Shown here one piece after another: positions 1 to 32,844 of a stretch of DNA of 33,942 nucleotides (within the stretch, counting starts at the first letter, position 1; each line of letters opens with the position of its first letter). The notes under the pieces were generated by a model. That model saw nothing but the letters and a program-made list of their open reading frames with translations, did no database searches and was not told where the DNA came from. The translations under genes were made by a program, and so were the position numbers. Source of the DNA: an uncultured bacterium (GTDB lineage Bacteria; Schekmanbacteria; GWA2-38-11; J061); NCBI GenBank assembly GCA_964549305.1, contig CAZJVM010000027.1, positions 1-33,942 on the forward strand, given 5' to 3'.

Positions 1-141
1 GATAGGAGCGCAAAAGCAGGGAAAAGATATTTCTACAAGCTTGTCGATATTGAAATTGGAGGTGATGAAAATGTGAATGAGCCAAATCCCAGTGCAAAAA
101 TAAAAGCTAAAAATAAACGGCAGAAGAAACACAGAAAATAG
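1..141 (+). CDS. 3' end of a CDS truncated by the window edge; probable secreted/surface protein
   Basis: Frame +1 is open from base 1: DRSAKAGKRYFYKLVDIEIGGDENVNEPNPSAKIKAKNKRQKKHRK, TAG at 139-141. The D..A..G..YFYKLVD...G pattern resembles the end of Fn3/Ig-like modules in secreted proteins. Confidence 0.65.
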   Translation, partial: DRSAKAGKRYFYKLVDIEIGGDENVNEPNPSAKIKAKNKRQKKHRK

Positions 142-179
142 ATTATAAAAATTATAAATAATGATAAGGAGTTATTATT

Positions 180-344
180 ATGAATAACAATATGAAAGAG
201 ATGGAAAAAAAGAAAGACGAGGTGGTAAAATCGGGAAAGGATTTAAAACCAAAATATGCTTCTCCTGAGATAATAACTTATTCAGGTGATGACATTTTGA
301 AGGAGTTAGGCACTGCGAAAACCTGCAGTCCTTTTCCTCCATAA
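180..344 (+). CDS. Putative RiPP precursor peptide, 54 aa (not in ORF track)
   Basis: AAGGAG RBS precedes ATG 180. Translation MNNNMKEMEKKKDEVVKSGKDLKPKYASPEIITYSGDDILKELGTAKTCSPFPP, TAA 342-344. Has a KPKYxxPxI RRE-binding-type motif and lies directly upstream of an RRE-fused radical SAM gene. Confidence 0.85.
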   Translation: MNNNMKEMEKKKDEVVKSGKDLKPKYASPEIITYSGDDILKELGTAKTCSPFPP

Positions 345-370
345 GACAAAGCGATTAAAAAAGATACTTG

Positions 371-414
371 AAACCTTGCCTTAAAAATGAACTTTTAAGG
401 CAGGGTTTTTTTTT
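371..414 (+). terminator. Rho-independent terminator between precursor and radical SAM gene
   Basis: Stem AAACCTTGCCTTAAAA (371-386) pairs with TTTTAAGGCAGGGTTT (393-408) with one G-U pair; 6-nt loop; T run to 414. Confidence 0.85.
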
Positions 415-440
415 GAAAAAAAGTTATTTATTTTTTAAAT

Positions 441-1802
441 ATGCGAAAAATGGAAGATAGAAAAACTTATAACCCCACAGTGAGTCAGAGCTTTTTTCTG
501 GAAAGAAGAGAAGGAAAAAACCTTCTTACCCACAGAAATCGTCGTGCGTTTGTCGTTGTCAATGACTCGGGACTTGAAATTATCCGCTTAATGGACGGAA
601 GCAGAAGTATTGATGATATAAGTAAAATAATTGCCGGTAAATATGGAGTTAATAGCAAAACCGTTCGGGAAGATGTTTTAAATCTGATAAGAAAGCTTGA
701 AGAAAGCGGTTTTCTTGATAATAACAATATTGAAACGATGACCGGTAAATGTTCTCCCGAATCCCTTTCAATCCATATAACAGACAAGTGCAACCTATCC
801 TGTCTTCACTGCTACAATGAAAGCAGTCCTTCTTCCCTAAAAGAACTTTCATTTGAGAAAATAAAGGAATTGATTGAATGTTTTAAGAAACTTGGAGGTG
901 AATCGCTTACTCTTACGGGAGGTGACCCTCTCCTGCATCCTCATTTTCAAGAAATTCTGAAAATGACAAAAAGATTTAAGCACGTATCCGTCTTAACAAA
1001 CGGAACTAATATAGACAGTAATTTTGCAAAACTGCTTAATGAATCGGGTGCGCGAATCCAGATTAGTCTTGACGGGTCAACTGCGCAGATAAATGACCGG
1101 ATAAGAGGGAAGGGAGCTTTTAAAAAGATTGGAAGAGGAATTGAATATCTCAAAAAAAATGGTGCCGGAGATAAAATAGTTATTTCCGCTACTGCGATGA
1201 GACAGAATATCCGCAATGTTCCGGCAATTATTGAACTTGCAGAAGGAATGGGAATAAAAAATTTCAGATGCCTTCCATTGAGGCGGGAGGGATGCGCAGA
1301 TAAAAACCGCGATGAGATATCTTCGGGGATTGATATTGATGATTATTATTCTCTTTACAGAGAGATTGACCGTTTGAGGGAGATTAAAAAAGGAAAGATT
1401 GATATTGAAACCGGATTCGGAAGGTCCGCATTGAATATGCAAGGCGATGAAAACGGGCTTTCATGTCCTGTGGGAAAAACATTCACTGTCTATGCGCGGG
1501 GCGATGTGTTTCCTTGCCCTGTAATGATGGATGAAATATTTTGCGTGGGAAATGTTTACGAAATGCCGCTTGATGTGATAATCAATTCAACTGCAGTCTC
1601 CACTCTGAGGAAATCCTGCGCAGAGAGAAAGGAGAAGATAAAGAAATGCTCTCTCTGCCTTTGGAAGAATTTCTGCGAAGGCGGTTGTGCGGCAATTGCC
1701 TACCTGCAGAAGGGAACTATTGAGGATGCAGATGATTTCTGTGGGATAAGAAAGGAATTCCTCGGCAAATCTCTTTGGGGGATAGTTTCGGAGAAAGGTT
1801 GA
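441..1802 (+). CDS. PqqD/RRE-fused radical SAM/SPASM peptide maturase
   Basis: N-terminal ~95 aa PqqD-like (VNDSGLEIIRLMDGSRSIDDISKIIAGKYGV...VREDVLNLIRKLEESGFL); CNLSCLHC motif; SPASM cysteines CPVG...VFPC...CSLCLWKNFCEGGC...C. Confidence 0.92.
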   Translation: MRKMEDRKTYNPTVSQSFFLERREGKNLLTHRNRRAFVVVNDSGLEIIRLMDGSRSIDDISKIIAGKYGVNSKTVREDVLNLIRKLEESGFLDNNNIETMTGKCSPESLSIHITDKCNLSCLHCYNESSPSSLKELSFEKIKELIECFKKLGGESLTLTGGDPLLHPHFQEILKMTKRFKHVSVLTNGTNIDSNFAKLLNESGARIQISLDGSTAQINDRIRGKGAFKKIGRGIEYLKKNGAGDKIVISATAMRQNIRNVPAIIELAEGMGIKNFRCLPLRREGCADKNRDEISSGIDIDDYYSLYREIDRLREIKKGKIDIETGFGRSALNMQGDENGLSCPVGKTFTVYARGDVFPCPVMMDEIFCVGNVYEMPLDVIINSTAVSTLRKSCAERKEKIKKCSLCLWKNFCEGGCAAIAYLQKGTIEDADDFCGIRKEFLGKSLWGIVSEKG

Positions 1803-1807
1803 TTATT

Positions 1808-2956
1808 ATGAATTACAAAGGAGAAGGAAAGGGATATTCGCGCAATATACGCAGAGCTTTTTACAAGATTCTCGATTTTTCTTTTCTTATGGAATCGGAT
1901 TCAAAGTCATTGCTCGATGCTTTTGAAAACTCATATGGAAGATTTAAAAAAAATGATATTTCCGGGAAGTTTTCCACATTCGGTTTTTTTACAGTGAAAG
2001 CGGAAGAAAATCCTTATGTGATTTTCAAAGGTAAAAAATATAATCTTCCTCCCTCGGAGAATGTACATATTTACGCGGTCTCATTCGTAATGAGAAATGT
2101 GATAGAAAACATCAGGGAGTACTTCCTCATACACGCAAGCGCAGTTGAACGAAACGGGGATGCAATAGTTATTTCCGGGCCTCCCTCACACGGCAAGACA
2201 AGTCTTGCTCTGAAACTTTCCGAAAAGGGATTTAATCTCCTTTCCGATGAGTATGCCCCCCTTTGCAGAAAGAATGGCAATCTATTGCCCTTCCTGCAGG
2301 CAGTAGGCATAGAAGATGAGGCATTGGAGTTGTTTTGGAAGGGGAAATATGCTGAAAAAGATAAACGGATAAGAAATGATTTACGCAGTAAAGCAAAGTG
2401 GGTAATCGATGCTGATAGTATCAGTCACGTAAAAAGCGATATGAAATTCGGATTGAAATATTTTTTCCTCCTTAAATCCTCAGGCACAAATGAAAAGGAG
2501 GATGTCGTTGAGGTCGCTTTTTTGCGTAATGCCGAAACCATCAAGGATAAATTCTGCCATATTGATGAAGTTACGGTTATCTCTGAAGGAGTGGTTGACG
2601 GTTATGCCTCCGCAAGGTTTTCCGTACCTAAAACCAGGAATGTCATAAACGCCTTTGATAAAGTGCGACATAAAGAAAAAGAGCACATAATTTATGTTGA
2701 GAAGATTGAAGAGGGTAACCCCGATTTTTCGAAGAAACCTTCTGCAAGAGAGGTTTCCATACAACCCCTTTCCATTGAAATTATGAAAAATATGAGAAAT
2801 TTCACTAAAGGAAGCGAGCTTTTTGAAGAGTTTGAAGGAGATTATTCAAGAGTGATTTTTGAAATTACCGCTTTGTTAAGGGGTGTGAAATGTTTTACCC
2901 TGAAACCGGGAAACCTTGATGATACTGCAGACCTCCTGATTGACATTATTTCCTGA
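1808..2956 (+). CDS. HprK-related P-loop Ser/Thr kinase
   Basis: IHASAV motif, Walker A GPPSHGKTS, LLSDE. ATG 1808 after AAAGG is preferred over the ORF-track start at 1775. Confidence 0.85.
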   Translation: MNYKGEGKGYSRNIRRAFYKILDFSFLMESDSKSLLDAFENSYGRFKKNDISGKFSTFGFFTVKAEENPYVIFKGKKYNLPPSENVHIYAVSFVMRNVIENIREYFLIHASAVERNGDAIVISGPPSHGKTSLALKLSEKGFNLLSDEYAPLCRKNGNLLPFLQAVGIEDEALELFWKGKYAEKDKRIRNDLRSKAKWVIDADSISHVKSDMKFGLKYFFLLKSSGTNEKEDVVEVAFLRNAETIKDKFCHIDEVTVISEGVVDGYASARFSVPKTRNVINAFDKVRHKEKEHIIYVEKIEEGNPDFSKKPSAREVSIQPLSIEIMKNMRNFTKGSELFEEFEGDYSRVIFEITALLRGVKCFTLKPGNLDDTADLLIDIIS

Positions 2957-3013
2957 TATATTATTGATTTAAAAGAGCTTTTAATGGCGGCAACCTTTAA
3001 AGAACCTAATGCG

Positions 3014-6000
3014 ATGATAAAAAGATTTTACCTTGTCATATTTTGCCTCTTCTTTTTTGTCTATGCTGATTCGCGTTTCTGCGAATCCGTTGAATCCCTT
3101 AGACTTATAAGCGGGAATGACTCGGGTCTGGTTGGCGAATATCAATTGCCCTCTTATTCCATTGTCAATGCTACAGACCAAAAAGAAGTCGGTTATTCAG
3201 AAATTGAGATACCTGATACATTCCCGTTGCTTGAATGCGGCAAACCTAAAATTGTTCAAAAGTCTTTTATGATTGCAATTCCCGAAGATGTAAGTCCTCG
3301 CATTGAAATTCTTTATAAAGAAACGGAAGACATCGGTGATATTAATATTCCTTTGGCGAAAAAAAAATATTATCCAGATGAATCTTTCATTGAAGCGAAT
3401 AAGGCATCCGGTCTGTGCGAAGGAATATTTAATGAGAATACTTTATATCCTCAAAATATAATTGAAATCGATAATATTGGTTTTCTGAGAAATCAGAAAG
3501 TCGCGAGAGTTACAATCTATCCTGCCAGGTATCTGCTGTCTGAGCAAAAATTGAAGATATGTAAAAAACTGAAATTCAAAATACATTTTGATAATATCGC
3601 GGGAAGCGCGAGAAGAATTGTAAAAGGTGGTTTCCCGGGAATGTCGCGAGGGAGAAACAATACTTTTGACAGGTTAATAAGCGCTTCGGTCATAAACAGT
3701 TATTCGCCTTCTCAGGGATTTAAAAATAATAATTTGTCAAAATCATTTAAGCAGGCAAAACTTCAGGAATTTAATTTAAAAGTCAAAACAAAATCTGCCG
3801 GGTTTTATGTGATTGGCTATGATGAGTTTAAAAAACTGCATTATGCTCCTGAAAGCATTGATCCCCGTAATCTGCGAATTTTTCATAAAGATGTTGAAGT
3901 ACCGCTTTTTATTGAGGGAGAAGATGATGGAAAATTCGACAAAGGAGATTTCCTTGTTTTTTATGCCAATGATGTTGACAGTGAATACAGTCGTTACAAT
4001 ATATATATTCTTTCATACGGAAGCACTTCGGGGTTGAGGATGGCAAAAAGAGACGGGACTCCAACGACTACCGTGAATGTAACTGAGGATTTCAGGAATA
4101 AAATTCATTTCGAGGAAAACATCGAATATGTGAAATATACTTTTGAAGAAGGAGCAGACCACTGGTATTGGAGCAAACTAAACCCCGGGGGAAAAAAGAA
4201 TTTTCCCTTCGAGGTGAACAATCCATTATACGCAGATAGTAATATTACAGTAACAGTTTCAATCAGGGGATTTACTTATAATTCTTCGGACACAGAAAAT
4301 CATCACGCAAAAATATCTTTAAACGGAGAGCTTATAGGGGAAAAATATTTCAAAGGGCAGGAAGAAGTTCTCTATGAAACATCGGTTTCGGACACATCAC
4401 TTATCGACGGGGAAAATTATTTGTCCGTAGAAAACCCCGGAGATACGGGTTCATCAGTTTACATTGACATCTTTCTTTTTAATTCCATTGATGTAAATTT
4501 CAGGCAAAAGCTCAAAGCCGAAAAAGATGAAATAATTTTTTCGTTGGAAGGTAATACCGGTGAAACATTCGGAATAAGCGACTTTTCCGGAAGCGATATT
4601 TGGGCATTTGATATAAGCAACGCAGAATCCCCTGAGATAATCACAGGCGTATTGAAAAATGCTTATGAAGATGAAGAAAAACTCAGCAAGTATAAAGCCT
4701 ATTATTCGGATAATTCGGATTCTGCTGGGACAATTTATCTGCTTTCATCGGATAAGTTTAAAAAACCTCTCAAAATATCCGAAATCTCGCCTCAAAAAAT
4801 TAAGGGTACATCAACGGGAGTTGATTATATTGCCATAGTTCATGATAAATTTTTTGATGCAGTAAAACCGCTTTTGAAATTCAGGGAGAAGAAGGGGTTA
4901 AAGGCAAAAGCGTTTAAAATTTCAGACATCTACAATGAGTTTAGTTCGGGAATTCCCGACGCGCGGGCAATAAAGGATTTTTTACGATACGTCTATGAAA
5001 ACTGGGATCCTGTTCCTGCATATGTACTCCTGGTAGGAGATACAGTTTTGGATTATAAAAATTATCTCAATTACGGGAGAAAATCATATATTCCCGTAAA
5101 ATATCTTGATTCAAGGTTTTCGGCGGAGTATCCAAGCGACAGTTGGTTTGTGGAAGTGAACGGTGATGACATATTTCCGGATATGCTAATTGGCAGAATA
5201 CCTGCCAACAGCGTGTCGGATTTAAAGGCGGTAATTAAGAAGATTAAAAAATATGAGAATGGCTCATCCGGCAAGGTGTGGCAGAAGAAAGCAGTTTTTG
5301 TTGCCGATAATAACGATGATATTTTTCAAAACGGCCTTGACTATTTGGCGGATACTTACCTTTATTCCGATTTTAGTCTTAAAAGGATATATCTGTCTGA
5401 CTATAACGATTGCACGAATAGCGGATGCTCTTCTGTTACAAAAGATATTTTGGACAGTATTAGCGCGGGCACATTGATGACAGTTTATTCGGGGCATGGA
5501 AACGTCAATAACTGGGCAGGTGAATTAGCGTTGCAGACTTCGGATTTGGATAAAATCAAACAAAATAAAAAATATACATTTTTGACGACTTTAAACTGCA
5601 ATAACGGATATTTCGTTAGATTGGGAGAGAAGTTTTCATTGGGTGAAAAATTTCTTATGACAGACAATGGCGGGGCAATAGGCGCCTTTGTGTCAACGGG
5701 CTTGGCGTTTGCAAATGAAGAGAAAAATCTTTCAGTAGAACTTTTTAAATTAATTTTTGATGAAGGTGAAAACGAGCTTGGATATATTACAACGAAAGCA
5801 AGAGTATCAGCGTACAGCTATGGCATTTCAGATGAGATTATCAAATTCTTTCTTCTTTTCGGCGATCCCGCGCTTCGCCTCAAAATAAATACCGAAAGAA
5901 TCATTCCGCAAAGTCCTTTAAACGGTGATAAAATTTCAAAACAGGATAAAGACAGGTTGTTTTTTTCATGGCAGTCGCCTCAGAGTTATAAATTCAGAAT

Positions 6001-6223
6001 TCAGTTTTCCGAAGATGAGCTATTCACCAATAAATACGGGTTTAAAATACCTCTAAAGGGCTGGATAAAGAAGAATAAGAAAAAATGCGAAAAAGTGAAA
6101 GCCCAAAGCATCAGGGAATTAATCGATGGCAACGATGGAGAAATATTCTGGAGAATCAAAGGTAAGCCCGTTAAAGGAGTTGAAGGAAAAACTTTATTCA
6201 GTACTTCGAGAAAGATGAGATAG
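3014..6223 (+). CDS. Secreted C25 (gingipain/PorU-like) cysteine peptidase with N-terminal propeptide
   Basis: Signal peptide MIKRFYLVIFCLFFFVYA from ATG 3014 (track start 2984). Propeptide-like region (GKPKI...YP...GFLRNQKVARVTIYP). C25 motifs IYNEFSSG, YVLLVGD, PDMLIGRIP, catalytic YSGHG and LNCNNG, LFGDPAL. Confidence 0.9.
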   Translation: MIKRFYLVIFCLFFFVYADSRFCESVESLRLISGNDSGLVGEYQLPSYSIVNATDQKEVGYSEIEIPDTFPLLECGKPKIVQKSFMIAIPEDVSPRIEILYKETEDIGDINIPLAKKKYYPDESFIEANKASGLCEGIFNENTLYPQNIIEIDNIGFLRNQKVARVTIYPARYLLSEQKLKICKKLKFKIHFDNIAGSARRIVKGGFPGMSRGRNNTFDRLISASVINSYSPSQGFKNNNLSKSFKQAKLQEFNLKVKTKSAGFYVIGYDEFKKLHYAPESIDPRNLRIFHKDVEVPLFIEGEDDGKFDKGDFLVFYANDVDSEYSRYNIYILSYGSTSGLRMAKRDGTPTTTVNVTEDFRNKIHFEENIEYVKYTFEEGADHWYWSKLNPGGKKNFPFEVNNPLYADSNITVTVSIRGFTYNSSDTENHHAKISLNGELIGEKYFKGQEEVLYETSVSDTSLIDGENYLSVENPGDTGSSVYIDIFLFNSIDVNFRQKLKAEKDEIIFSLEGNTGETFGISDFSGSDIWAFDISNAESPEIITGVLKNAYEDEEKLSKYKAYYSDNSDSAGTIYLLSSDKFKKPLKISEISPQKIKGTSTGVDYIAIVHDKFFDAVKPLLKFREKKGLKAKAFKISDIYNEFSSGIPDARAIKDFLRYVYENWDPVPAYVLLVGDTVLDYKNYLNYGRKSYIPVKYLDSRFSAEYPSDSWFVEVNGDDIFPDMLIGRIPANSVSDLKAVIKKIKKYENGSSGKVWQKKAVFVADNNDDIFQNGLDYLADTYLYSDFSLKRIYLSDYNDCTNSGCSSVTKDILDSISAGTLMTVYSGHGNVNNWAGELALQTSDLDKIKQNKKYTFLTTLNCNNGYFVRLGEKFSLGEKFLMTDNGGAIGAFVSTGLAFANEEKNLSVELFKLIFDEGENELGYITTKARVSAYSYGISDEIIKFFLLFGDPALRLKINTERIIPQSPLNGDKISKQDKDRLFFSWQSPQSYKFRIQFSEDELFTNKYGFKIPLKGWIKKNKKKCEKVKAQSIRELIDGNDGEIFWRIKGKPVKGVEGKTLFSTSRKMR

Positions 6224-6246: not shown

Positions 6247-6795
6247 ATGCCATACAAAAATGATACAGACATTTCGTGGCGAATCCATTCAGGACTTCAT
6301 AGTAATGGCTATATCATTATGAATATTTCCGGGACGAGCATGAATCCCATCTTATCTGAAGGCGACGAGATAACCGTAGAAAAAATCAAGTTTGAAGATA
6401 TCCGCAAAGGAGATATCCTCCTTTTCAGGATTGGCGACACTTTTTTTGCCCACAGGTTTGTGAAATATATTAAGCGCAGAGATGACCGAAAGGGAAAAAT
6501 CATTCAATGCGGTGACAACAGCATGGAGTTTAAACCTGTTGATGAAGATGCTGTTGTGGGAAGAGTGAAAAGCGTAAAGAGGATAGATTCGGTAGATTGT
6601 CTGACACAAGGCAGTTGGAAAATTTTAAACAGACTGACAGGTATTATTCAGAATGCTTTATACACAGTCACGTGTAAAGCAGAGAAAGAGGAAAATAAAA
6701 AAATTTTACAAATTTATGGTAAAATAACACATATCTTTGCTAAAACTACCATAGGTTTTTTTTCACGTTTAAGGGGCTTTTTTTCAAAAAAATGA
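6247..6795 (+). CDS. S24/S26 family serine peptidase (signal-peptidase-like, no N-terminal TM)
   Basis: GTSMNP (catalytic Ser), KGDILLF, AHR (Ser-His type dyad), GDN, VVGRV. Confidence 0.85.
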   Translation: MPYKNDTDISWRIHSGLHSNGYIIMNISGTSMNPILSEGDEITVEKIKFEDIRKGDILLFRIGDTFFAHRFVKYIKRRDDRKGKIIQCGDNSMEFKPVDEDAVVGRVKSVKRIDSVDCLTQGSWKILNRLTGIIQNALYTVTCKAEKEENKKILQIYGKITHIFAKTTIGFFSRLRGFFSKK

Positions 6796-6804
6796 TGAGA
6801 AAAG

Positions 6805-7902
6805 GTGAAAAAACAAAATAATATCAGCGCCTATGCAGACTACATCTTGGTTTTTTTCAGTACTATCCTGATTTTTCTTACAATTCCCTATGTCCCAAAA
6901 ATATGGCTATCCCTTGAAAGCGATGAGAAGAGAATTGCTGTCAATATTCTTTACTTTCTTTTTTTGTCAACTGCCCTTGCACTAATTTTTATTATATTCC
7001 GAAAAAAAGATTATTCTTTTTTAAGATTTGGAATTCTTCTGATAATTTCATATTTTTATGTTGAAGTATTTTTAAGCCTTTATCGTTTTCCGGCGGAAAA
7101 ATTTCATCTTGCCGAGTATGGAGTTCTGACATTATTCGCTTTCAGGTTGTTTTTAAAGAAAAACAGCGCTTTGTCTGCAATCGTCAAAGCGACTTTTTAT
7201 ACTTTCTATGTAAGCATTATAGACGAAACAATCCAGTGGATAGTGCCGGGGAGAGTGGGGACATACGAGGATTTAATAATAAACATTAAAAGTGTGCTTC
7301 TTTCCCTCGCTGTTGTGTGCGTGATTGTTTTTCCCGTGAAACAGGGGATGAGATTTACCAGAAAAGAAGTAAAAGAGTCTTTGTTCTATTGCTTTTTCGC
7401 CGTGATTTTAATCTGTTTTTTCCTTTATAATGTTCATAGCTATGGATATGTAATTAAAGATGAGGATTTGAGTTTTTACTCTTCTCTGACTAAATCGGAG
7501 TTGGAGGAAGTTTCAGAAAAAATTATCAGGAAGAAGGAGTTGTTGAAAGATTCTCAGATAGACAGGGCAATAAAGGATAAAAAGATAGAGCATCTCGAAG
7601 AAGAGAAAAGAAATATTGCCTATTTTTTGAGCGAGAGATACAGGCACCTCACCGAGAGCGAGATCGCGTTATCTAAAAACAAAAAGGAAAAAGCATATTT
7701 TGAAAAGCTCATAGCAGACAGGTATTATCCTCTTTACGACCTGCACGACAAAAAGACGGAAATTGTCCGGCAAAACAAAGCGGAGGGGATTTACACAAGC
7801 CCTGTAAAATCTGAACTAATAGTGAGTTTCTCAAAAAAGCAACTCATCTTAGCGGGTTTTTTTTCCGGCGCTATTGTTTTAGCCGTCGCTATATTTGTTT
7901 GA
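6805..7902 (+). CDS. VanZ-like multi-pass membrane protein with soluble C-terminal insert
   Basis: EKFHLAEYGVL and IIDETIQWIVPGRVGTYEDLIIN are VanZ-type motifs; many hydrophobic helices; GTG start. Confidence 0.8.
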   Translation: MKKQNNISAYADYILVFFSTILIFLTIPYVPKIWLSLESDEKRIAVNILYFLFLSTALALIFIIFRKKDYSFLRFGILLIISYFYVEVFLSLYRFPAEKFHLAEYGVLTLFAFRLFLKKNSALSAIVKATFYTFYVSIIDETIQWIVPGRVGTYEDLIINIKSVLLSLAVVCVIVFPVKQGMRFTRKEVKESLFYCFFAVILICFFLYNVHSYGYVIKDEDLSFYSSLTKSELEEVSEKIIRKKELLKDSQIDRAIKDKKIEHLEEEKRNIAYFLSERYRHLTESEIALSKNKKEKAYFEKLIADRYYPLYDLHDKKTEIVRQNKAEGIYTSPVKSELIVSFSKKQLILAGFFSGAIVLAVAIFV

Positions 7903-9297: not shown

Positions 9298-10320
9298 ATG
9301 TTTTCTTTGTTAAAAGGGCGCATTGCCCGAAAAGCTACTATGTTTGCCGCAAGAAACAGGGCAATCAGGAATATCATTGAAAAAAACAGAATATCACTGG
9401 AATTTCCTTCAAATATCTTCATTGAGCCTACAAACCGCTGTAACCTTAAATGCAGAATGTGCCCGCAGAATGACAATGAGGATGTGGAGAGGGGATTTAT
9501 GGATATGGCGCTTTTTAAAAAAATAATCGATGAAAGCGTTCAGCACGGTAAAAGAACGGCAATTTTTTTCCACAAAGACGGTGAACCCCTCCTTAATGAA
9601 AATCTGCCTGATATGATTGAATATGCTGTTTTAAAAAAAGCGGCATATAAGACACATTTGAGCACGAATGCCCATCTTCTTAATGAAGATAAAATGAAAA
9701 AGCTTGTAATGTCGGGAATTGACAGCGTTATAATAAACCTCGACGCAAGTGATGAAGAAACATACAAACTGATAAAGGGCAGAGGAGGTCTCAGAGAAGT
9801 GGAAACAAAAATAATGTCAATGATAGACTTCAGGGATAAAATGAAAAGAATCAATCCCGCCATACGAGTGAAAATAATACCTGTTGAAGAAAATATGAAT
9901 GAAATAGAAGATTTTCAAAAAAAATGGAAACCCTATGCCGATGAAGTGGTAGTGAGCAGAGAGTTTGCCTGGCCGGGCAGAAAATCGGAAAACGGGAAAG
10001 CTTCCAGCCGTGAAGATAACCGTTATCCCTGTATAAGTTTGTGGCTTTCTATGACGATTAACTGGGATGGCAGTGTTTCCGTTTGCTGCATCGATTATTA
10101 CCATCGGGGCATTATCGGGAATGTGAGGGAAAAGAATATTGCGGACATCTGGAAAGGAAAACGCCTTCAGGAAATCAGGAAATACCATATTGAAGGCGAT
10201 TTCGGCAAGGTCGCTGTTTGCAAAGATTGTAAAGGATTATGGGTAAGAGATACAGTTGGAAGAAATTCAGAAAAGTGGTTAAAAAAAAGAATGTTAAAAT
10301 CGGAGTTATGGAATGGATAG
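9298..10320 (+). CDS. Radical SAM protein with short SPASM/twitch domain (glycan-locus type)
   Basis: IEPTNRCNLKCRMC, GEP, C-terminal YPC...WDGSVSVCC.D...IGN...IW...CKDC. Confidence 0.9.
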   Translation: MFSLLKGRIARKATMFAARNRAIRNIIEKNRISLEFPSNIFIEPTNRCNLKCRMCPQNDNEDVERGFMDMALFKKIIDESVQHGKRTAIFFHKDGEPLLNENLPDMIEYAVLKKAAYKTHLSTNAHLLNEDKMKKLVMSGIDSVIINLDASDEETYKLIKGRGGLREVETKIMSMIDFRDKMKRINPAIRVKIIPVEENMNEIEDFQKKWKPYADEVVVSREFAWPGRKSENGKASSREDNRYPCISLWLSMTINWDGSVSVCCIDYYHRGIIGNVREKNIADIWKGKRLQEIRKYHIEGDFGKVAVCKDCKGLWVRDTVGRNSEKWLKKRMLKSELWNG

Positions 10321-25113: not shown

Positions 25114-26991
25114 TTAAGCTCTAACCCACTTTTCTTTCCATATTGTATAGCAGATTACTGTCCATATTTTCTGACCGCAATTTCTTTTTTTGCTCATATG
25201 GTCTTTGACGAGTTTGTTTACAAACTTGGCGTTTAATTCGGGATGTTTTGCCGAATTTTCTTTTGATGTAAGCTCTAAAGAAATCTCTTTCATCTCATTT
25301 CTCAAAAGATTGTCCAGCGGAAGGTTAAATCCTTTTTTTCTTCTTTTTACGATATTTTCCGGAAGTCTTTTCAATGCGGTCTTTTTCACGATATATTTTC
25401 CTTCTCTGCCATTGAGTTTCAGATATTCCGGAACAGACGCGGCAAACTCCACAACCCGTCGGTCAAGGAAGGGTACCCGCACTTCAAGAGAATTTGCCAT
25501 ACTTGCCATATCGACTTTTTTCAGAATATCGTCAACGAGCCATGTTTTTATATCGAGAAAGAGCATCCTGTTCAATTCACCGCAGTCATTGAAATTATCA
25601 AAATGCTCCTTCATTGAATAAAAAGGCGAATAACCGGATTCTTCTTTTATGTAATCCGGGTTTATTAATTCTTTTAGCTCGTCATTGCCGAATATGGTAC
25701 GCCAGCGGATATGGGCATCAAAGGAATTCATTTTCATTCCATCATATAATTTTTCAACTCTCGGGTCATTGCTGAATATTTGTGCCGCAGATAATGCCAG
25801 GCGAAAAAGCGGCAAGCTAAGAGTGGTGAAAGAATTATTGTGGATTTTGTTTCTTAAACTGTCTGCAAGATATGATGGGTATCCGGCAAAATTTTCATCG
25901 CTTCCGTCTCCGGAAAGAACAACCTTGAGTTTTTTTGACGCTTCGCGGGAAATGAGGAAAGTGGGGATGAATGATGAGTCCGCAAAAGGTTCGTCAATAT
26001 GGGAAATTATTGAGATTATTTCCTCAGTGGATATTTTTTCTATGTCAACTCTGTCGTGCGCGCTTTTTAAAAGCGTCGCCACATTATCCGCGGCATCGGT
26101 TTCTTCTCTGTTTTTAAACCACAGGTTTGCCGTAAAGGTATTAATTATTCCGCCTGATATTTCGCTCATAATCGAAGAGACCAGGCTGGAATCGAGCCCT
26201 CCGCTTAGAAATGAGCCTAAGGGGACATCACTCAAAAGGTGTGATTTTACGGAAGATTTAAGCTGATGATAAAACATCTCGTCAAGATTATCTTCGCGCG
26301 TTTCCTCCTGAGGGGTACAGGATATTTCCCAATATTTGCGTATCTGAATATTTCTTTTTTCCGCGATAAGAATATGTGCCGGTGGTAGGGAATATACGGA
26401 TTTGTATGCCGTGTTTGGAGTGAGAATATATCCGAGTGTAAAATAGTCAATAATGCTTCTGATGTTCACCTCTCTGCTGAGATGAGGGTAATTGAAAAGG
26501 GCTTTTACCTCCGACGCAAAAGCGAATGAATCTCCGCAGTTTACATAGTAGAGAGGTTTAATCCCTATTCTGTCACGCGCGACGATTAATTTTTCAGCCT
26601 TTGTGTCGAGTATGGCAATGGCAAACATCCCTTCAAGGCGTGTCACAAATTCCTCTCCACACTCTTCATAGAGGTGAGGAAGAATTTCGGTGTCGGAATC
26701 GGAATTTAATTTGTGTCCCTTTGAGGTAAGCCATGAAGCTATTTCCCGGCAGTTGTATATTTCTCCGTTAAGTATTGCCGCGATGTTTTCACTCTCGTTA
26801 AATGCAGGCTGTTTCCCCTTTTGAGGGTCTATTATCGCCAGACGGTTACTCCCAAGTGCAAAGTTGTCTTTAATAAAATGCTGTTCGTCGTCGGGTCCCC
26901 GATGCCTTAAAGAAGACGTCATCGCGGAGATTATATGGCGCGCCGCAGGAAGCGATTTGTCAAAATTATAAAAACCGGAAATTCCGCACAT
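25114..26991 (-). CDS. asnB: Asparagine synthase (glutamine-hydrolysing) family amidotransferase
   Basis: MCGISG Ntn nucleophile, HRGPD, RLAIID, NGEIYN, RDRIGIKPL, LSGGLDSS, SGDGSDE, EVRVPFLD. Confidence 0.93.
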   Translation of the reverse strand: MCGISGFYNFDKSLPAARHIISAMTSSLRHRGPDDEQHFIKDNFALGSNRLAIIDPQKGKQPAFNESENIAAILNGEIYNCREIASWLTSKGHKLNSDSDTEILPHLYEECGEEFVTRLEGMFAIAILDTKAEKLIVARDRIGIKPLYYVNCGDSFAFASEVKALFNYPHLSREVNIRSIIDYFTLGYILTPNTAYKSVYSLPPAHILIAEKRNIQIRKYWEISCTPQEETREDNLDEMFYHQLKSSVKSHLLSDVPLGSFLSGGLDSSLVSSIMSEISGGIINTFTANLWFKNREETDAADNVATLLKSAHDRVDIEKISTEEIISIISHIDEPFADSSFIPTFLISREASKKLKVVLSGDGSDENFAGYPSYLADSLRNKIHNNSFTTLSLPLFRLALSAAQIFSNDPRVEKLYDGMKMNSFDAHIRWRTIFGNDELKELINPDYIKEESGYSPFYSMKEHFDNFNDCGELNRMLFLDIKTWLVDDILKKVDMASMANSLEVRVPFLDRRVVEFAASVPEYLKLNGREGKYIVKKTALKRLPENIVKRRKKGFNLPLDNLLRNEMKEISLELTSKENSAKHPELNAKFVNKLVKDHMSKKRNCGQKIWTVICYTIWKEKWVRA

Positions 26992-29162: not shown

Positions 29163-31034
29163 ATGCCTCTTTATCTGTCAACCTTGCGGTGGATATTCAG
29201 GGGGGGTATCGTATCAGTGGGGATAAAAAGACTAAAACTTTTTTTTCGTTTCAATAAATATCTTTTCCCATATTGGGATAAGGAAGTCATAATATTGGTC
29301 TGTACGGTATTTGCAACACTCTTCAGTCTTGCAAGTCCCTATCTTACGAAAATAACAATCGATTTTGCATATGCAAACAGAGATTTTTATCTTTTCAATA
29401 TGCTGGTGCTTTCCGGCGCGCTGATTTTCATTTTTTCAGGACTTTTAAACGGTATAAAAAGTTATATTTCCGTTTATGTAAAACAGCTTTTAACATTCGA
29501 TATAAGAGCGGATTATTACAGGCACCTTCAAAAACTTTCCATTCGTTTTTTCCAGTCACGCACCACCGGTGAGCAGATGTACAGAGTGGGAGGCGATATA
29601 AACAATGTCGCTTCCATGGCAACTGACACAATACCCAATGTAATTACGACAATTATCAGACTGGTCTTTCTCTTTTCGATTTCTTTTGTGTTGAGCTGGA
29701 AACTTACGCTTATTGCTCTTCTAATAACGCCTTTCTTCTATCTCCATTCTTATGTCTTTGGCGAAAAACTGAGAGAAAGGAATAAAGAGATGACGGAAAA
29801 GGGACAGGACATTCTAAGCAGTCTTCAGGATGCCTTTTCCAATATACGTCTCATAAAAGTTTTTGGAAAGGAGAAAAATGAGGTCAGAAGGTATCTGACT
29901 GACCAGATTGATATGATACGCCTCAGCCTTAAAAACTATAAGATGGGGGTCGCGAGCGGAAGCACCCTGAGCATAATGAATACTTTGGTGATGACATCGC
30001 TTTCCTATTATGCGGGATATCTCATTATCGTCGAGGAATTGACCTTGGGAAGTCTTACGGCGCTCGTGCTCTATCTTGTCCAGCTTTTTGGTCTTCTTAA
30101 ATCACTCGGGACGACGTATCAGGGCGTTATAATAAAATTTGTAAATATCGAAAGGCTTGTTGAGACTTTCGATGCCGCGATTGAAATCAGCGACAAACCC
30201 AATGCAGTTGCCCTTCGAAAAATAGAGGGTGAGGTTGAATTCAGGGATATACACTTTGGTTATAAAAATGGTGAAGAGGTTTTGAAGGGCGTGAATTTTA
30301 AAATCGCTCCAAATTCGACTGTTGGAATTATGGGGAAAAGCGGTGCGGGGAAAACCACCATACTGAATCTTGTTTTAAGGCTTTATGACCCGTGGAAGGG
30401 CAGTGTACTCATAGACGGGAAAGATGTAAGGGATTTAAAACTACAAATTCTCAGGGAAAAGACTGGAGTAGTTTTTCAGGAACCCTATCTTTTAAACGGC
30501 ACCATAGCCGAGAATATTAGTTACGGAAAACCGGATGCCACCAGAAGGGAAATCATTGCCGCGGCTGAACTTGCAGACGCGCACGATTTTATCAAGGGAT
30601 TTCCCGACGCTTATGAATCAGAAATAGGCGAGGGCGGATGCAACCTTTCGCAGGGACAAAAGCAGAGAATTGCCATAGCGCGGGCGCTTGTTAAAAAGCC
30701 CGGCATTCTCATTCTCGATGAGGCGACATCATCTTTAGGTTCCGATTCCGAAGGGGAGATAAAAAAATCCCTTTCGGCACTGAAGGACAGATGTACCATC
30801 ATTATAGTTTCACATCGGCTTTCCACTATTATGGACGCCGATTCGGTTTTTGTCCTTGAAGACGGGATGATAACTTCAAAAGGCACGCATGAGGATCTCC
30901 TCGAAGAAAATTCTTTTTACAGGAATGTTTATAATGAACAGTTCAAAAAGTCAGGAAAGCCGCGCCTTGAGATTTTGCGCGAGAAAATAAATAAACCAGA
31001 GCAAAAGGAAAAAGAAACTGACAATGGGGCTTAA
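29163..31034 (+). CDS. ABC exporter, fused permease/ATP-binding, no C39 peptidase domain
   Basis: Six-TM domain, GKSGAGKTT, LSQGQKQR, ILDEATS, SHR. True start may be in-frame GTG 29217 after GGGGGG. Confidence 0.93.
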   Translation: MPLYLSTLRWIFRGGIVSVGIKRLKLFFRFNKYLFPYWDKEVIILVCTVFATLFSLASPYLTKITIDFAYANRDFYLFNMLVLSGALIFIFSGLLNGIKSYISVYVKQLLTFDIRADYYRHLQKLSIRFFQSRTTGEQMYRVGGDINNVASMATDTIPNVITTIIRLVFLFSISFVLSWKLTLIALLITPFFYLHSYVFGEKLRERNKEMTEKGQDILSSLQDAFSNIRLIKVFGKEKNEVRRYLTDQIDMIRLSLKNYKMGVASGSTLSIMNTLVMTSLSYYAGYLIIVEELTLGSLTALVLYLVQLFGLLKSLGTTYQGVIIKFVNIERLVETFDAAIEISDKPNAVALRKIEGEVEFRDIHFGYKNGEEVLKGVNFKIAPNSTVGIMGKSGAGKTTILNLVLRLYDPWKGSVLIDGKDVRDLKLQILREKTGVVFQEPYLLNGTIAENISYGKPDATRREIIAAAELADAHDFIKGFPDAYESEIGEGGCNLSQGQKQRIAIARALVKKPGILILDEATSSLGSDSEGEIKKSLSALKDRCTIIIVSHRLSTIMDADSVFVLEDGMITSKGTHEDLLEENSFYRNVYNEQFKKSGKPRLEILREKINKPEQKEKETDNGA

Positions 31035-31575
31035 AAAAGAAAGAGTGTCGCGGGAATACGAAGTGGAATTTTTAAAAAAAATTATGCAGGGGAGAGTACT
31101 CCTTCCCGCAGTTGTTGGCTTGATTATGTTTTTGCTCGTCTTTTCCGTAGGAGGAATATTTCTTGTTACAAAGGTGAAAGAAAAAACTACAGGCATTATG
31201 AATGTTTCAGCGGGTAATAATGAAAATCCGGGAGATAGCGCGGCTTTCGATGTGAACTTGTCTTTGAATTACAGGTATGAAGTCAATCGTGGCGACGAGG
31301 TGGAGGTTGTTTTGAAGGATTTGAACAACCATGTTTATTTAGAGGGAGGCGTGAAAGAAATAATATCAAATGCCCCGGTTAAAGGGGAACATTACAAAAA
31401 AATTATTGTGAAAATAAATGATATTAAAAGTTCCGGTGAAAATAGTGACGGGGAAATCATAAAGAGAATCGAGGCAGATTCAAATATAAGTGTTGATGTT
31501 TTTGTCAGGTCAAGGCAGTTGCTTGAACTTTTTGTAGGGGAGAAACTCAGAAAATTAGCAGGGAGATTTCTTTAA
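31024..31575 (+). CDS. Single-TM protein, truncated HlyD/membrane-fusion-like accessory
   Basis: One TM, a beta-rich domain (VNRGDEVEV...LEGGVKEI) and a HlyD-like C-terminus (VDVFVRSRQLLELFV). Overlaps the ABC gene stop. Confidence 0.6.
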   Translation: MGLKKERVSREYEVEFLKKIMQGRVLLPAVVGLIMFLLVFSVGGIFLVTKVKEKTTGIMNVSAGNNENPGDSAAFDVNLSLNYRYEVNRGDEVEVVLKDLNNHVYLEGGVKEIISNAPVKGEHYKKIIVKINDIKSSGENSDGEIIKRIEADSNISVDVFVRSRQLLELFVGEKLRKLAGRFL

Positions 31576-31578
31576 GCT

Positions 31579-32844
31579 ATGGGAAGAAACGGAATAGATA
31601 CGGGGAAAATTATAGAAATTATTACCGGAAAGATAAGGGAAGAGGGAGTGGGTTTTTTCGCTCAGCTTGATGCTTTTCTTACGGGCAAGCTTGAATTGTC
31701 CCGCGGGGATTCAAAAGCTCTCACAGAAAAAATAATGGAGCAATTCAAGGAGAAGGCATTTCCTCCCGTAACCCGCCTTGAGATGTTTCTTACTGAAAAC
31801 TGTCCCCTGAGGTGCGACTATTGCTTTGTTGAGGGGAAAAACAACTATAAAAGAATGAGCAGGGAAACGGCGATGAAGGCAGTTGATTTTCTTATTCGGG
31901 AATCAGCTGACAAAGAGGATGTGAATATAATTTTCTTTGGAGGCGAACCTCTTCTCGAGTTTGAGCTTATGAAGGAAATTACGGAATACTCAGGCAGTGA
32001 AGCGAAAAAGGCGGGAAAAAAAATAACCTATGACATAACTACAAACGGAGTGCTTTTTACGGATGAGATACTAAAATATTTTCATCAAAAGGGAATCAAG
32101 TTTCTTTTAAGCATCGATGGTGATGCGGAGACTCACAACAGGCACAGAAAGACAGTGGACGGGAAGGGGAGTTATGAACTCGTAATGGAAAAATTTCCGA
32201 TGATGAAAAAATATCAACCGTGGATGGGTGCTAAACTCACAGTGCATCCCGATACAGCGCATAAAATAACGGATAACGTGATACATCTTTCAAAGAGGGG
32301 ATTCAATCAGTTTATTATCGGCGCGGCAAGCGGAGTGGAATGGGATGAAGAGAACTGGAAAATATATGAAGAACAGATGCATGAAGTCGCCCGTATCTAC
32401 AGAAAAATGAAAAAAGAACGGCAATATTTCAGAATGACGCTTTTTGAGGAGGAAGAAGATAAGTTCTTCAATAAAAAATATATCTGGGGATGCCAGGCAG
32501 GAAGACATTCATTGACAATTGCGGCTAACGGCGACATCTATCCCTGCGCAAAAATGCTTGGACTCGATGACCTTGGCGGAATCTGTAGACTCGGCGACCT
32601 CGATTCCGGAATTACGGAGATAATAACCCGCGGAGAGCTTATGGGAATGGGCAAAGTTGACCGGAGCAAATGCGGCGAGTGTGAAATCCTTGATTGCTGT
32701 AAGGGGGGGTGTTTTGCCACTAACTATCTTGAAACAAAAAATATGTTTAAGCCCAGTTTTTTTGACTGCAGGACATCCGCGATACAAACAAGAGTGATAA
32801 CGAGCCATCTCAGGGCTCTAAAGGAAGAAAGTGAAGATAAGTAA
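31579..32844 (+). CDS. Radical SAM/SPASM peptide-maturase-like protein
   Basis: CPLRCDYC, FFGGEPLL, SIDG; SPASM CQAG...IYPC...CGECEILDCCKGGC...C. Confidence 0.92.
   Translation: MGRNGIDTGKIIEIITGKIREEGVGFFAQLDAFLTGKLELSRGDSKALTEKIMEQFKEKAFPPVTRLEMFLTENCPLRCDYCFVEGKNNYKRMSRETAMKAVDFLIRESADKEDVNIIFFGGEPLLEFELMKEITEYSGSEAKKAGKKITYDITTNGVLFTDEILKYFHQKGIKFLLSIDGDAETHNRHRKTVDGKGSYELVMEKFPMMKKYQPWMGAKLTVHPDTAHKITDNVIHLSKRGFNQFIIGAASGVEWDEENWKIYEEQMHEVARIYRKMKKERQYFRMTLFEEEEDKFFNKKYIWGCQAGRHSLTIAANGDIYPCAKMLGLDDLGGICRLGDLDSGITEIITRGELMGMGKVDRSKCGECEILDCCKGGCFATNYLETKNMFKPSFFDCRTSAIQTRVITSHLRALKEESEDK

Follow-up and report, generated by a model that had tools for sequence, protein, structure and literature searches.

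The contig CAZJVM010000027.1 of an uncultured bacterium (33,942 nucleotides; this whole stretch of DNA is referred to here as the window) carries close to its 5' end a small gene, at positions 180..344, for a peptide of 54 amino acids. The results described here show that this open reading frame (ORF) is a real gene under purifying selection, and its product is very probably the precursor peptide in a maturation cassette that depends on a leader. The genes that follow it code for a radical S-adenosylmethionine (rSAM)/SPASM enzyme with an N-terminal recognition element (RRE) of the kind found in pathways for peptides that are made on ribosomes and modified after translation (RiPPs), a HprK-like kinase, a C25 cysteine peptidase and a SipW-type signal peptidase homologue. 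Judged by analogy of the enzyme logic, this cassette is a relative of the linear polyphosphorylated peptide (LPP) pathway of Bacillota (Popov et al., Nat Commun 2026, PMC13381572), to which an rSAM reaction has been added. We consider it probable that an LPP-like route, consisting of RRE docking, phosphorylation and leader removal by a SipW-type peptidase, is combined here with rSAM chemistry on the residue Cys49 of the peptide.

The precursor gene and its family

The features of the precursor gene are as follows.

180..344, + strand: precursor peptide gene, 54 amino acids plus stop codon (ORF listing, homologues, profile searches and codon comparison)
166..171, + strand: ribosome-binding site AAGGAG, 8 nt ahead of the ATG at 180 (direct sequence reading)
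370..417, + strand: hairpin (17 pairs) with T-run, a putative terminator or attenuator between the precursor and the enzyme genes (consensus scan)

The translation of the ATG ORF at 180..344 (+), as given by the ORF listing, is MNNNMKEMEKKKDEVVKSGKDLKPKYASPEIITYSGDDILKELGTAKTCSPFPP. An initial annotation of this DNA, made from its sequence, had reported an ORF with a good ribosome-binding site in this place, and the coordinates, the strand, the length of 54 amino acids and the AAGGAG are all as it claimed. The elements that it had pointed out in the translation, viz. a charged N-terminus rich in Lys, Glu and Asp, the sequences KPKYASPEI and DDILKELG, and a tail holding the sole Cys residue (Cys49), are likewise each present. 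The stem-loop proper of the hairpin behind the gene is placed by the consensus scan by itself at positions 370-409, with the T-run following it.

The ORF is already contained in a public protein collection as a predicted protein, and a search of 5.8 billion proteins identified 3 metagenomic homologues with 63-70% identity to it. In the alignment of the window peptide with these homologues the N-terminus varies, and residues 28-46 and 49-54 are invariant. A six-sequence profile retrieved 108 small proteins, none of which carries a functional name (the few named ones are called "hypothetical") and whose hosts include Schekmanbacteria, Aminicenantes, Aquificota and Thermodesulfobacteriota. With a 44-sequence profile, 570 matches with E <= 1e-3, among them 94 with E <= 1e-10, were obtained from 1.84 billion cluster representatives at 50% identity. 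Scans of the peptide against Pfam and NCBIfam matched no family, and a search of the ESM Atlas returned only unnamed clusters with scores <= 0.87. When the 24 conserved leader codons of the window were compared with those of each of six relatives, between 6 and 13 synonymous changes were seen at unchanged residues, and due to these synonymous changes at shared residues selection is indicated to act on the protein.

Anatomy of the leader and the core

The family pattern could be placed in 107 of the 108 profile-matched proteins, and all position counts given below refer to these 107. The parts of the window peptide that correspond to it are the following.

255..272, + strand: Y26-A-S-P29-E-I31, a motif of the [Y/W]-x-x-P-x-[LVIFA] RRE-binding type (conservation; precedent in lasso and LPP systems)
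273..314, + strand: second conserved leader block I32-T45, I-T-Y-S-x-D-D-I-L-x-E-L-G-[TP] (44-sequence alignment)
315..323, + strand: A46-K47-T48, A-x-[AT], predicted leader cleavage site between residues 48 and 49, alternatively between 45 and 46 (conservation)
324..341, + strand: predicted core C49-S-P-F-P-P (start of the hypervariable region across the family)

All members share a layout in which a variable basic N-terminus is followed by a conserved leader and a hypervariable tail of 3-47 residues. The consensus of the leader, with about 23 conserved residues, is [KE]-[YF]-x-x-P-x-[VI]-[IV]-T-Y-[ST]-x-[DE]-[DE]-I-L-E-E-L-G-[PT]-A-[QHK]-[AT]. Residues Y26 and P29 are invariant in alignment A2, and in alignment A3 P29 is again invariant and Y26 is at least 90% conserved; I32, T33, Y34, L40, L43 and G44 are also at least 90% conserved (44 sequences). 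The DDILKELG sequence, which the initial annotation described as an amphipathic helix without assigning it to the leader, forms the end of the conserved leader and it lies outside of the core.

At the end of the leader, position -3 is Ala in 104/107 of the proteins and position -1 (T48 in the window) is Ala in 95/107 and Thr in 9/107. Since the sequences are conserved up to this A-x-[AT] and hypervariable beyond it, the core is what follows the A-x-[AT]. Signal peptidases of the ER/archaeal (SipW) type cut after small residues at positions -3 and -1. Because the hypervariable region starts at residue 49 and an A-x-A sequence suits a peptidase of this type, the sequence evidence makes leader cleavage between residues 48 and 49 more likely than that between 45 and 46. 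By analogy with LPP the cleavage could, in the alternative case, fall after L-G-[TP], so that A-K-T-C... would become the N-terminus of the core. The A-x-[AT] site had no mention in the initial annotation, and the same is true of the SipW-type peptidase at 6247..6795 and of the links to the C25 peptidase and the secreted proteins described below. The interpretation that it gave of the peptide is partly supported.

Within the core, position +1 is Cys in 74/107 of the proteins, +3 is Pro in 67/107 and +4 is Phe in 60/107; position +2 (Ser50 in the window) is Ser in 48/107, Asn in 21/107 and Tyr in 21/107. The tails are of several types, viz. Cys-x8-10-Cys at the C-terminus (39 proteins), Cys-less x-Tyr (22), long Pro/Lys-rich (12), Cys-x3-6-Cys-Pro/Thr (9) and the six-residue tail of the window (6), the six proteins of the last type including P0052, named as Aquificota, and two unnamed sequences, P0056 among them.

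The initial annotation had recognised a lasso-like leader motif in the peptide and, from the spacing of its residues, had judged that the precursor probably belongs to a different class. This judgement is borne out by our results, in which a precursor with the lasso-type motif Y-x-x-P-x-[ILV] has no adjacent cyclase or B2 peptidase. If the peptide were nevertheless a lasso precursor, then its Y-x-x-P-x-I motif would be accounted for, as would the HprK-like kinase, which is also seen in paeninodin-type clusters (PMC8498205), and an asparagine-synthase homologue is encoded in the window at 25114..26991 (-). However, this homologue is located 25 kb away on the opposite strand, and it matches the XrtA/PEP-CTERM amidotransferase with 530.9 bits versus 246.1 bits for the lasso cyclase. 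Further, there is no B2 peptidase, the position at which lasso spacing places the Thr(-2) is occupied by Lys (Y26 + 15 = K41), and the core contains no Asp or Glu residue. Based on this, the lasso explanation is effectively refuted. The amidotransferase match at 25114..26991 (-), which is below the cut-off of 816.9 bits, is part of the polysaccharide context of the window and not a lasso cyclase.

Enzymes encoded by the cassette

The genes located downstream of the precursor are listed below.

441..1802, + strand: rSAM/SPASM maturase with N-terminal PqqD-like RRE in residues 35-92 (PF05402 6.7e-12, PF04055 6.2e-28, PF13186 2.6e-8)
1775..2956, + strand: HprK-like P-loop kinase, start uncertain, with an ATG 33 nt further downstream (TIGR04352 2.4e-16, below cut-off)
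2984..6223, + strand: secreted C25 cysteine peptidase with propeptide, PorU-like (PF01364 1.2e-81, PF08126 3.9e-14)
6247..6795, + strand: signal peptidase I homologue of the ER/archaeal (SipW) type, predicted leader peptidase (TIGR02228 5.9e-10, PF00717 5.2e-8)
6805..7902, + strand: VanZ-like membrane protein, possibly a member of the cassette (PF04892 7.1e-9)

The rSAM protein contains a CX3CX2C motif plus 7 invariant Cys residues in the SPASM pattern. In its AlphaFold model (predicted local distance difference test, pLDDT, 83) the N-terminus folds into an RRE-type winged helix of three strands and three helices, and the PqqD domain fused to this enzyme is the only one in the window. In sequence comparisons with solved structures, the rSAM matched SkfB (4.4e-16) and CteB (5wgg, 2.5e-15, aligned over residues 25-428), the next peptide-modifying enzyme being an anaerobic sulfatase-maturating enzyme (anSME, 3.5e-12). 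The order of the fold matches was CteB (7.7e-20; entries 5why/5wgg), SkfB (3.7e-18; entry 6efn), TigE, SuiB and anSME. CteB and SkfB are thioether-forming enzymes that act on Cys residues. The score of the rSAM is under the cut-off of every curated maturase model (StsB, 123.7 vs 625; PapB, 100.1 vs 340; AlbA, 96.4 vs 850).

The similarity to anSME brings into consideration a different reaction, in which the rSAM oxidises Cys49 to formylglycine, as the anSMEs do on C-x-P-x-R. The C-x-P part of this motif is conserved in the family (Cys at +1 and Pro at +3, see above), and anSME aligns with the rSAM across its whole catalytic region, with the value of 3.5e-12 by sequence and of 8.1e-15 by fold, the latter with the lowest root-mean-square deviation. 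However, there is no Arg at +5, anSME is without an RRE, CteB and SkfB rank above it, and the second Cys seen in many cores suggests cross-links. As a separate explanation of the peptide, formylglycine formation is therefore regarded as highly improbable.

An alignment of 11 kinase sequences shows no variation at H120, G140 and K141 and at least 90% conservation at T142 and D158, so that the P-loop and the HprK-type Asp are kept; the model of the kinase (pLDDT 82) matches the folds of ATP-PEPCK and HprK/P. The C25 peptidase scored 310.9 bits against the PorU model NF033707, which is under the cut-off of 420. In the SipW-type (S24-like) peptidase, S31, H69 and D90 are invariant among 4 homologues, the motifs G-[TC]-S-M-x-P, A-H-R and G-D (with Asn as the next residue in 3/4) are conserved, and the relative of this protein in locus L022 exceeds the TIGR02228 cut-off (65.7 vs 51.85 bits). 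A 45%-identical homologue of the VanZ-like protein is located after the peptidase in genome G004 and none was seen in the other loci. Beyond the VanZ gene, glycosyltransferase and sugar-modification genes are found, i.e. the cassette lies in a polysaccharide locus. A further rSAM/SPASM gene, the third in the window, is present in the sugar-modification block at 9298..10320; its best models (tungsten-cofactor maturase and spiro-SPASM) both scored below cut-off.

Synteny of the cassette across phyla

The gene content of related loci was determined from tblastn searches with the window proteins and from Pfam scans. Two relatives in the window's phylum have the same gene set as the window. A scan of named genomes with the peptide profile identified 18 loci, from Thermodesulfobacteriota, Aminicenantes, Chloroflexota, Planctomycetota/Brocadia and a metagenome-assembled genome labelled as Proteobacteria, and a metagenome scan with this profile identified 79 further loci. 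In a scan of genome contigs with the single rSAM protein no relative was found, where the peptide profile found loci.

In Thermodesulfobacteriota, Aminicenantes and Chloroflexota the same order recurs, viz. peptide, RRE-rSAM/SPASM, HprK-like kinase, C25 peptidase and, where the contig reaches, SipW-type peptidase. The order of the first four genes is seen in the window, L007, L009, L010 and L016; L008 has the first three, after which its contig ends, and in the window and L007 the S24-like gene is next in order. Partial forms are present in L011, L019 and L020, and the order is again found in the metagenome loci L030-L035, L042, L066 and L100. The C25 peptidase is syntenic in L007, L009, L010, L016, L017, L018 and others, and discrete PqqD genes occur in L007, L010, L011 and other relatives. 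In Planctomycetota the enzymes of the cassette are reduced to the kinase and the signal peptidase (L022 and L026, both without C25). The arrangement noted in the initial annotation, with the peptide upstream of an RRE-rSAM/SPASM enzyme and a HprK-like kinase, is a synteny that is kept across phyla, and conserved homologues of the leader are found upstream of RRE-rSAMs in several phyla, as that annotation would predict. The leader family can be regarded as established, and so can its synteny and the families of the enzymes together with the catalytic residues. As a separate observation, the loci L012 (8028) and L013 (8010) contain orphan family peptides amid housekeeping genes, with no cassette enzymes within 8 kb.

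The gene content was also compared between loci with different types of cores, using the loci with at least 3.2 kb downstream and after two exact duplicates were dropped. Among the 17 loci with Cys-first cores, an rSAM is present in 11, a HprK-like kinase in 8 and C25 in 8; for the 10 loci with non-Cys cores these numbers are 1, 8 and 7, with S24 in 4, and of the 3 loci with C-Y cores 1 has an rSAM and 3 have a HprK-like kinase, but as several of the counted loci are close kin these counts are not independent and they should be interpreted as a pattern, not as a statistic. If only loci with a HprK-like gene are considered, then the rSAM is present in 8/8 of the Cys-first (not C-Y), 1/3 of the C-Y and 1/8 of the non-Cys loci; the lone non-Cys locus with an rSAM (L100) has a later Cys. 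The pattern seen is that the rSAM goes with Cys-containing cores.

These distributions also bear on the explanation that the peptide is an ordinary bacteriocin of the sactipeptide/ranthipeptide type, for which the rSAM alone would define the product, the kinase, S24 and C25 genes being unrelated neighbours. Such a reading is consistent with the location of the RRE-rSAM/SPASM gene directly downstream, the nearness of this enzyme to CteB and SkfB by both fold and sequence, and a core with Cys. However, the kinase and S24 genes follow the peptide also in the rSAM-less cassettes L017, L018, L022, L026, L070, L083 and L099, the six-residue core has a single Cys, and the cassette contains no transporter or immunity genes, due to which this explanation appears decidedly improbable. 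It is accordingly the S24-type peptidase and the kinase, both encoded behind the peptide even where the cassette has no rSAM, that are the leader's constant partners.

Proposed maturation scheme and modification sites

According to the LPP-like scheme that we favour, residues 1-48 would constitute the leader, of which Y26-x-x-P29-x-I31 is predicted to dock as a beta-strand on the PqqD-like RRE of the rSAM, and the second conserved block, I32-G44, would present the leader/core junction to the modifying enzymes. The rSAM would act on Cys49 of CSPFPP, most likely forming a thioether within the conserved C-x-P-F motif, and the HprK-like kinase (1775..2956) would phosphorylate a hydroxyl close to this junction. 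For removal of the leader by the SipW-type peptidase (6247..6795), a cut behind A46-K47-T48 is predicted, one behind G44-T45 being less likely. The binding of the leader to the RRE in this scheme, as well as any role of the C25 peptidase, is what we infer from these comparisons.

With regard to the individual sites, the initial annotation had proposed Cys49 as a thioether donor with Phe52 as an alternative crosslink partner, and Thr45, Thr48 and Ser50 as kinase targets. Cys49 is a plausible rSAM target, as judged from sequence and models, with CteB and SkfB as the nearest enzymes and the rSAM co-occurring with Cys cores. Within the scheme, a thioether at Cys49 is given somewhat less than an even chance, and formylglycine at this residue appears improbable. 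A role of Phe52 as crosslink partner is only hinted at by the frequency of Phe at +4. Ser50 is the best guess for a kinase target on the core, while Thr45 and Thr48 are weakened as candidates because neither is conserved (see position -1 above) and the commonest family contexts have Pro in place of Thr45. A PQQ-like Glu-x3-Tyr cross-link (E30...Y34) was also considered and it was dropped, since many members of the family have Lys, Arg, Gln or Ala at position 30.

The C25 peptidase, its secreted partners and natural fusions

The window begins within a gene that is cut by the contig start.

1..141, + strand: 3' end of the upstream gene, a putative secreted-protein tail with the motif Y-x-Y-K-L-x-D-x-[DE] and a Lys/Arg-rich end (5'-open ORF, 46 residues visible)

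In related loci, the gene immediately ahead of the peptide is very often one for a secreted protein with LTD, FG-GAP or other ectodomains. These proteins have in common a C-terminal domain (CTD) of about 100 residues that is not matched by any Pfam or NCBIfam model and has the consensus W-E-T-x-x-E-x-D-N-x-G-F-N-L-Y-R ... Y-x-Y-K-L-E-D-V-D ... H-G-P; behind it comes a short tail rich in Arg and Lys. Four strong CTD copies are present in the genome that the window comes from, and 3 of them end in the same motif and basic tail as seen at 1..141, which also resembles the secreted proteins encoded immediately ahead of the peptide in the related loci; as only 46 residues are visible, we infer, and do not observe, that 1..141 encodes the end of a CTD protein. 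In 36/66 of the loci with at least 700 nt upstream, a CTD gene has the orientation of the peptide and stops fewer than 700 nt ahead of the leader motif, and a CTD anywhere in the locus is found in 57/93. Other occurrences were noted in the related loci L007, L008, L013, L016, L017, L020 and L021, and CTD proteins with the Arg/Lys tail are present on contigs C8, C51 and C132 of the window's genome, G000 (L106-L109, L112-L114). In L013 the CTD gene is just downstream of the orphan peptide and a B12-binding rSAM is encoded on the other strand, and in L039, L040, L043 and L045 two or three tandem family peptides with Cys-x-Pro-rich cores are interleaved with CTD genes.

In some cases the secreted protein and the peptide are parts of the same protein. 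A fusion from one lineage of Thermodesulfobacteriota consists of an ectodomain, the CTD, a Cys-Gly-Val motif, a transmembrane helix, an R/K cluster, the leader and the core. In the paralogous fusions of L014 (111..1316) and L015 (5712..8165) there is no start codon between the cargo and the leader, and further fusions, with three different ectodomains, are present among the cluster representatives (P0114, P0131 and P0146). All of the fusions carry the same 12-residue core with two Cys residues. The topology of these fusions implies that the leader and the core are on the cytoplasmic side, with the rSAM and the kinase.

These observations could also be interpreted to mean that the cassette is a module for sorting or anchoring of surface proteins, where the peptide is the detached cytoplasmic tail of the cargo and, when matured, controls or joins the CTD proteins processed by C25. 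The CTD genes directly upstream, a putative tail of this kind at the 5' end of the window, the natural fusions and the synteny of a PorU-like C25 are in accordance with such a role, and PorV, for which a search of the window's genome gave 0 matches, was not found. However, C25 and a CTD gene are also found as a pair where the peptide module is missing, which indicates that C25 and its cargo can work alone; further, C25 is missing from the Planctomycete cassettes L022 and L026, in which kinase and peptidase are both present, the peptide is cytoplasmic whereas C25 is secreted, and an attachment of peptide to cargo is without precedent. Due to these considerations we regard this explanation as unlikely. 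In the search of the genome for SprA_N its control was silent too, and thus the absence of a type IX secretion system (T9SS) cannot be read from that search.

An extended form of this proposal, in which the peptide family would be the soluble half of a hitherto undescribed, T9SS-independent pathway for sorting of surface proteins, is improbable. Here the PorU-like C25 "sortase" would cut the cargo bearing the CTD and basic tail, and the matured peptide would then be attached to this cargo or would gate it; the SipW-type peptidase would unmask a new N-terminal residue, in most cases Cys, which would be an ideal nucleophile for the acyl-enzyme of a cysteine protease, and the cargo-TM (transmembrane)-R/K-leader-core fusions would represent the ancestral or cis form.

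Returning to the LPP-like scheme with rSAM chemistry, a number of results weigh against it. Of 5 genomes of the window's phylum only 3 have the peptide, namely the window's own, that of a different genus within its family and that of a member of a different family. A genome of the window's genus (G003, 97% complete) and a 70%-complete genome are without it, due to which the peptide should be considered accessory. The candidate kinase sites are not conserved (e.g. Ala in place of Thr48 in most members and Asn at +2 in 21/107), and the only hydroxyls that are invariant in the family (T33, Y34 and S/T35) are in the leader. For a thioether peptide, a core of six residues with a single Cys is unusually small. 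Further, for 6/17 of the Cys-first loci (L012-L015, L045 and L058) the accessible sequence contains no rSAM, nor any other of the enzymes; these six are "orphans" or loci with several copies of the peptide. The matches to the curated rSAM, kinase and PorU families are all under their cut-offs, the cassette is without an exporter and the window is without a PF14907 nucleotidyltransferase, four copies of which are present elsewhere in the genome. From its hydrophobic N-terminus and propeptide the C25 peptidase is predicted to be extracytoplasmic, and the rSAM and the kinase to be cytoplasmic. Lastly, a second C25 gene (contig C51) lies beside a CTD gene with no peptide, rSAM or kinase, and because of this the link to C25 may be one of neighbourhood only.

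A second RiPP-like set at the contig end

At 29163..33805, running into the contig end, the window contains a second RiPP-like set, which consists of the following genes.

29163..31034: MsbA-like ABC exporter, about 22 kb from the cassette, beside the second rSAM/HprK-like pair
31024..31575: 183-amino acid ORF, looking like a membrane-anchored protein
31579..32844: PapB-like rSAM/SPASM enzyme (NF047865 270 bits, cut-off 340)
32831..33805: second gene of the HprK-related-kinase-A-like type

No precursor was recognised upstream of this set. The 183-amino acid ORF was considered as a second SipW-type peptidase or as a precursor, and it was rejected since it showed no similarity (hhalign probability 0.2).

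Significance of the leader family

If the favoured interpretation is correct, then the LPP logic of an RRE, a HprK-like kinase and a leader peptidase of the signal-peptidase type extends from Bacillota to at least six other phyla. The leader defines a new and very large family, whose 570 clusters at 50% identity are all unnamed or hypothetical and lie outside Pfam and NCBIfam. It is common to several maturation routes, with and without radical SAM, in the manner of the Nif11 and NHLP leaders. The coupling to C25 and CTD proteins and the natural fusions raise the question whether these are RiPPs for cell-surface assembly and not antibiotics; a role of this kind would fit the unexplained location of LPP and paeninodin clusters in capsule loci. 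Of these aspects the enzyme logic is already known (Bacillota, 2026). For this family of leaders and how widely it occurs, for the hybrid with an rSAM, for cores that begin with Cys and for the C25/CTD coupling, no published account was found in a search that did not extend to most subscription journals.

Comparison with known systems

The HPr-rel-A (TIGR04352/TIGR04353) and SynChlorMet (ScmC/D/E/F) systems of NCBIfam, which are defined by comparative genomics only, combine a HprK-like protein and a PqqD-like chaperone with, in the case of Scm, an rSAM/SPASM enzyme. Their models are the best or near-best NCBIfam matches for the kinase, the discrete PqqD proteins of the relatives and the rSAM, but the scores are far under the cut-offs (59.7 vs 200, 25.8 vs 35 and 115 vs 400), and a full-text literature search found no paper on "HprK-related kinase" or "SynChlorMet". 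With the paeninodin-type clusters the cassette shares a Y-x-x-P leader, a PqqD-type RRE and a HprK-like kinase acting on the precursor (PMC8498205), whereas the window is without the cyclase, the B2 peptidase, the C-terminal Ser and the acidic ring-closing residue. The layout of RRE, rSAM and SPASM and the seven-Cys SPASM motif are as in CteB and SkfB; however, the identity is only about 22%, the six-residue core has one Cys and the operon includes a kinase and a protease of the signal-peptidase type. PorU resembles the C25 peptidase in having a propeptide and in being encoded beside proteins that end in a conserved domain of about 100 residues, but the score is under its cut-off (310.9 vs 420), the CTD has no Pfam or NCBIfam model and PorV was not found in the genome.

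The nearest system is LPP. The LPP clusters (LppA/K/B/S/D/N) sit within capsule loci and their precursors, of 35-200 amino acids, have the leader YxxPxVLxHQxIxFETxxS and variable C-termini (PMC13381572). LppK adds several phosphates to Ser3 of the core, and LppS, with the catalytic residues S29/H68/D93, requires bound LppB in order to cleave the leader off behind Thr(-1) (PMC13381572). The binding of the Y-x-x-P motif to the RREs of lasso and LPP systems is supported by crystal structures and mutagenesis, and in the crystal structures Y(-16), P(-13) and V(-11) occupy pockets of the RRE, like in lasso systems (PMC13381572). A term search of the main text gave no occurrence of "radical SAM", "C25", "Chloroflex" or "Planctomyc", while Supplementary Data 1 includes signal peptidase I (SpI) homologues from Schekmanbacteria, Chloroflexi and Brocadia, in unstudied clusters of the sequence similarity network (SSN); by eye, and with no alignment, the Brocadia entries resemble the S24-like proteins of L022 and L026. 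When the RRE segment and a discrete PqqD were searched against PDB sequences, weak matches to PqqD/lasso-B1 were obtained (E 0.02-0.9) and the LppB entry was not found. In the window's genome (G000), a discrete PqqD is located within about 3 kb of PF14907 genes on two other contigs, C10 and C28, which may be further LPP-like or HPr-rel-type loci.

The cassette differs from the LPP clusters, as described in that paper, in several regards. Only Y-x-x-P-x-I-I, i.e. the first seven positions, is shared by the leaders, the remainder being I-T-Y-[ST]-x-[DE]-[DE]-I-L-E-E-L-G-P-A-Q-[AT] versus x-H-Q-x-I-x-F-E-T-x-x-S. The RRE is fused to an rSAM/SPASM enzyme, with no discrete RRE protein in the window, and the core is 6 residues long, with Cys as its first residue and a residue other than Ser at position 3. 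The rSAM in the cassette argues for a modification in addition to the polyphosphorylation of a core Ser that is the primary one in LPP and yields a linear product. The cassette is without a MsbA-type exporter or nucleotidyltransferase, and C25 and CTD-bearing secreted proteins are syntenic with it. The hosts, in place of Bacillota, are bacteria that appear Schekmanbacteria-like and members of Thermodesulfobacteriota, Aminicenantes, Chloroflexota, Planctomycetota and Aquificota. The features in common are a small precursor with a leader starting with Y-x-x-P-x-[VI], a PqqD-type RRE, a HprK-like kinase, a hypervariable C-terminus and location in a polysaccharide biosynthesis locus. The rSAM-less relatives L018, L070, L083 and L099 also have the PF14907 nucleotidyltransferase and, as in LPP, the leader peptidase predicted for the cassette is of the SipW/archaeal type with a Ser-His-Asp triad, in which S31/H69/D90 of the protein at 6247..6795 match S29/H68/D93 of LppS (PMC13381572).

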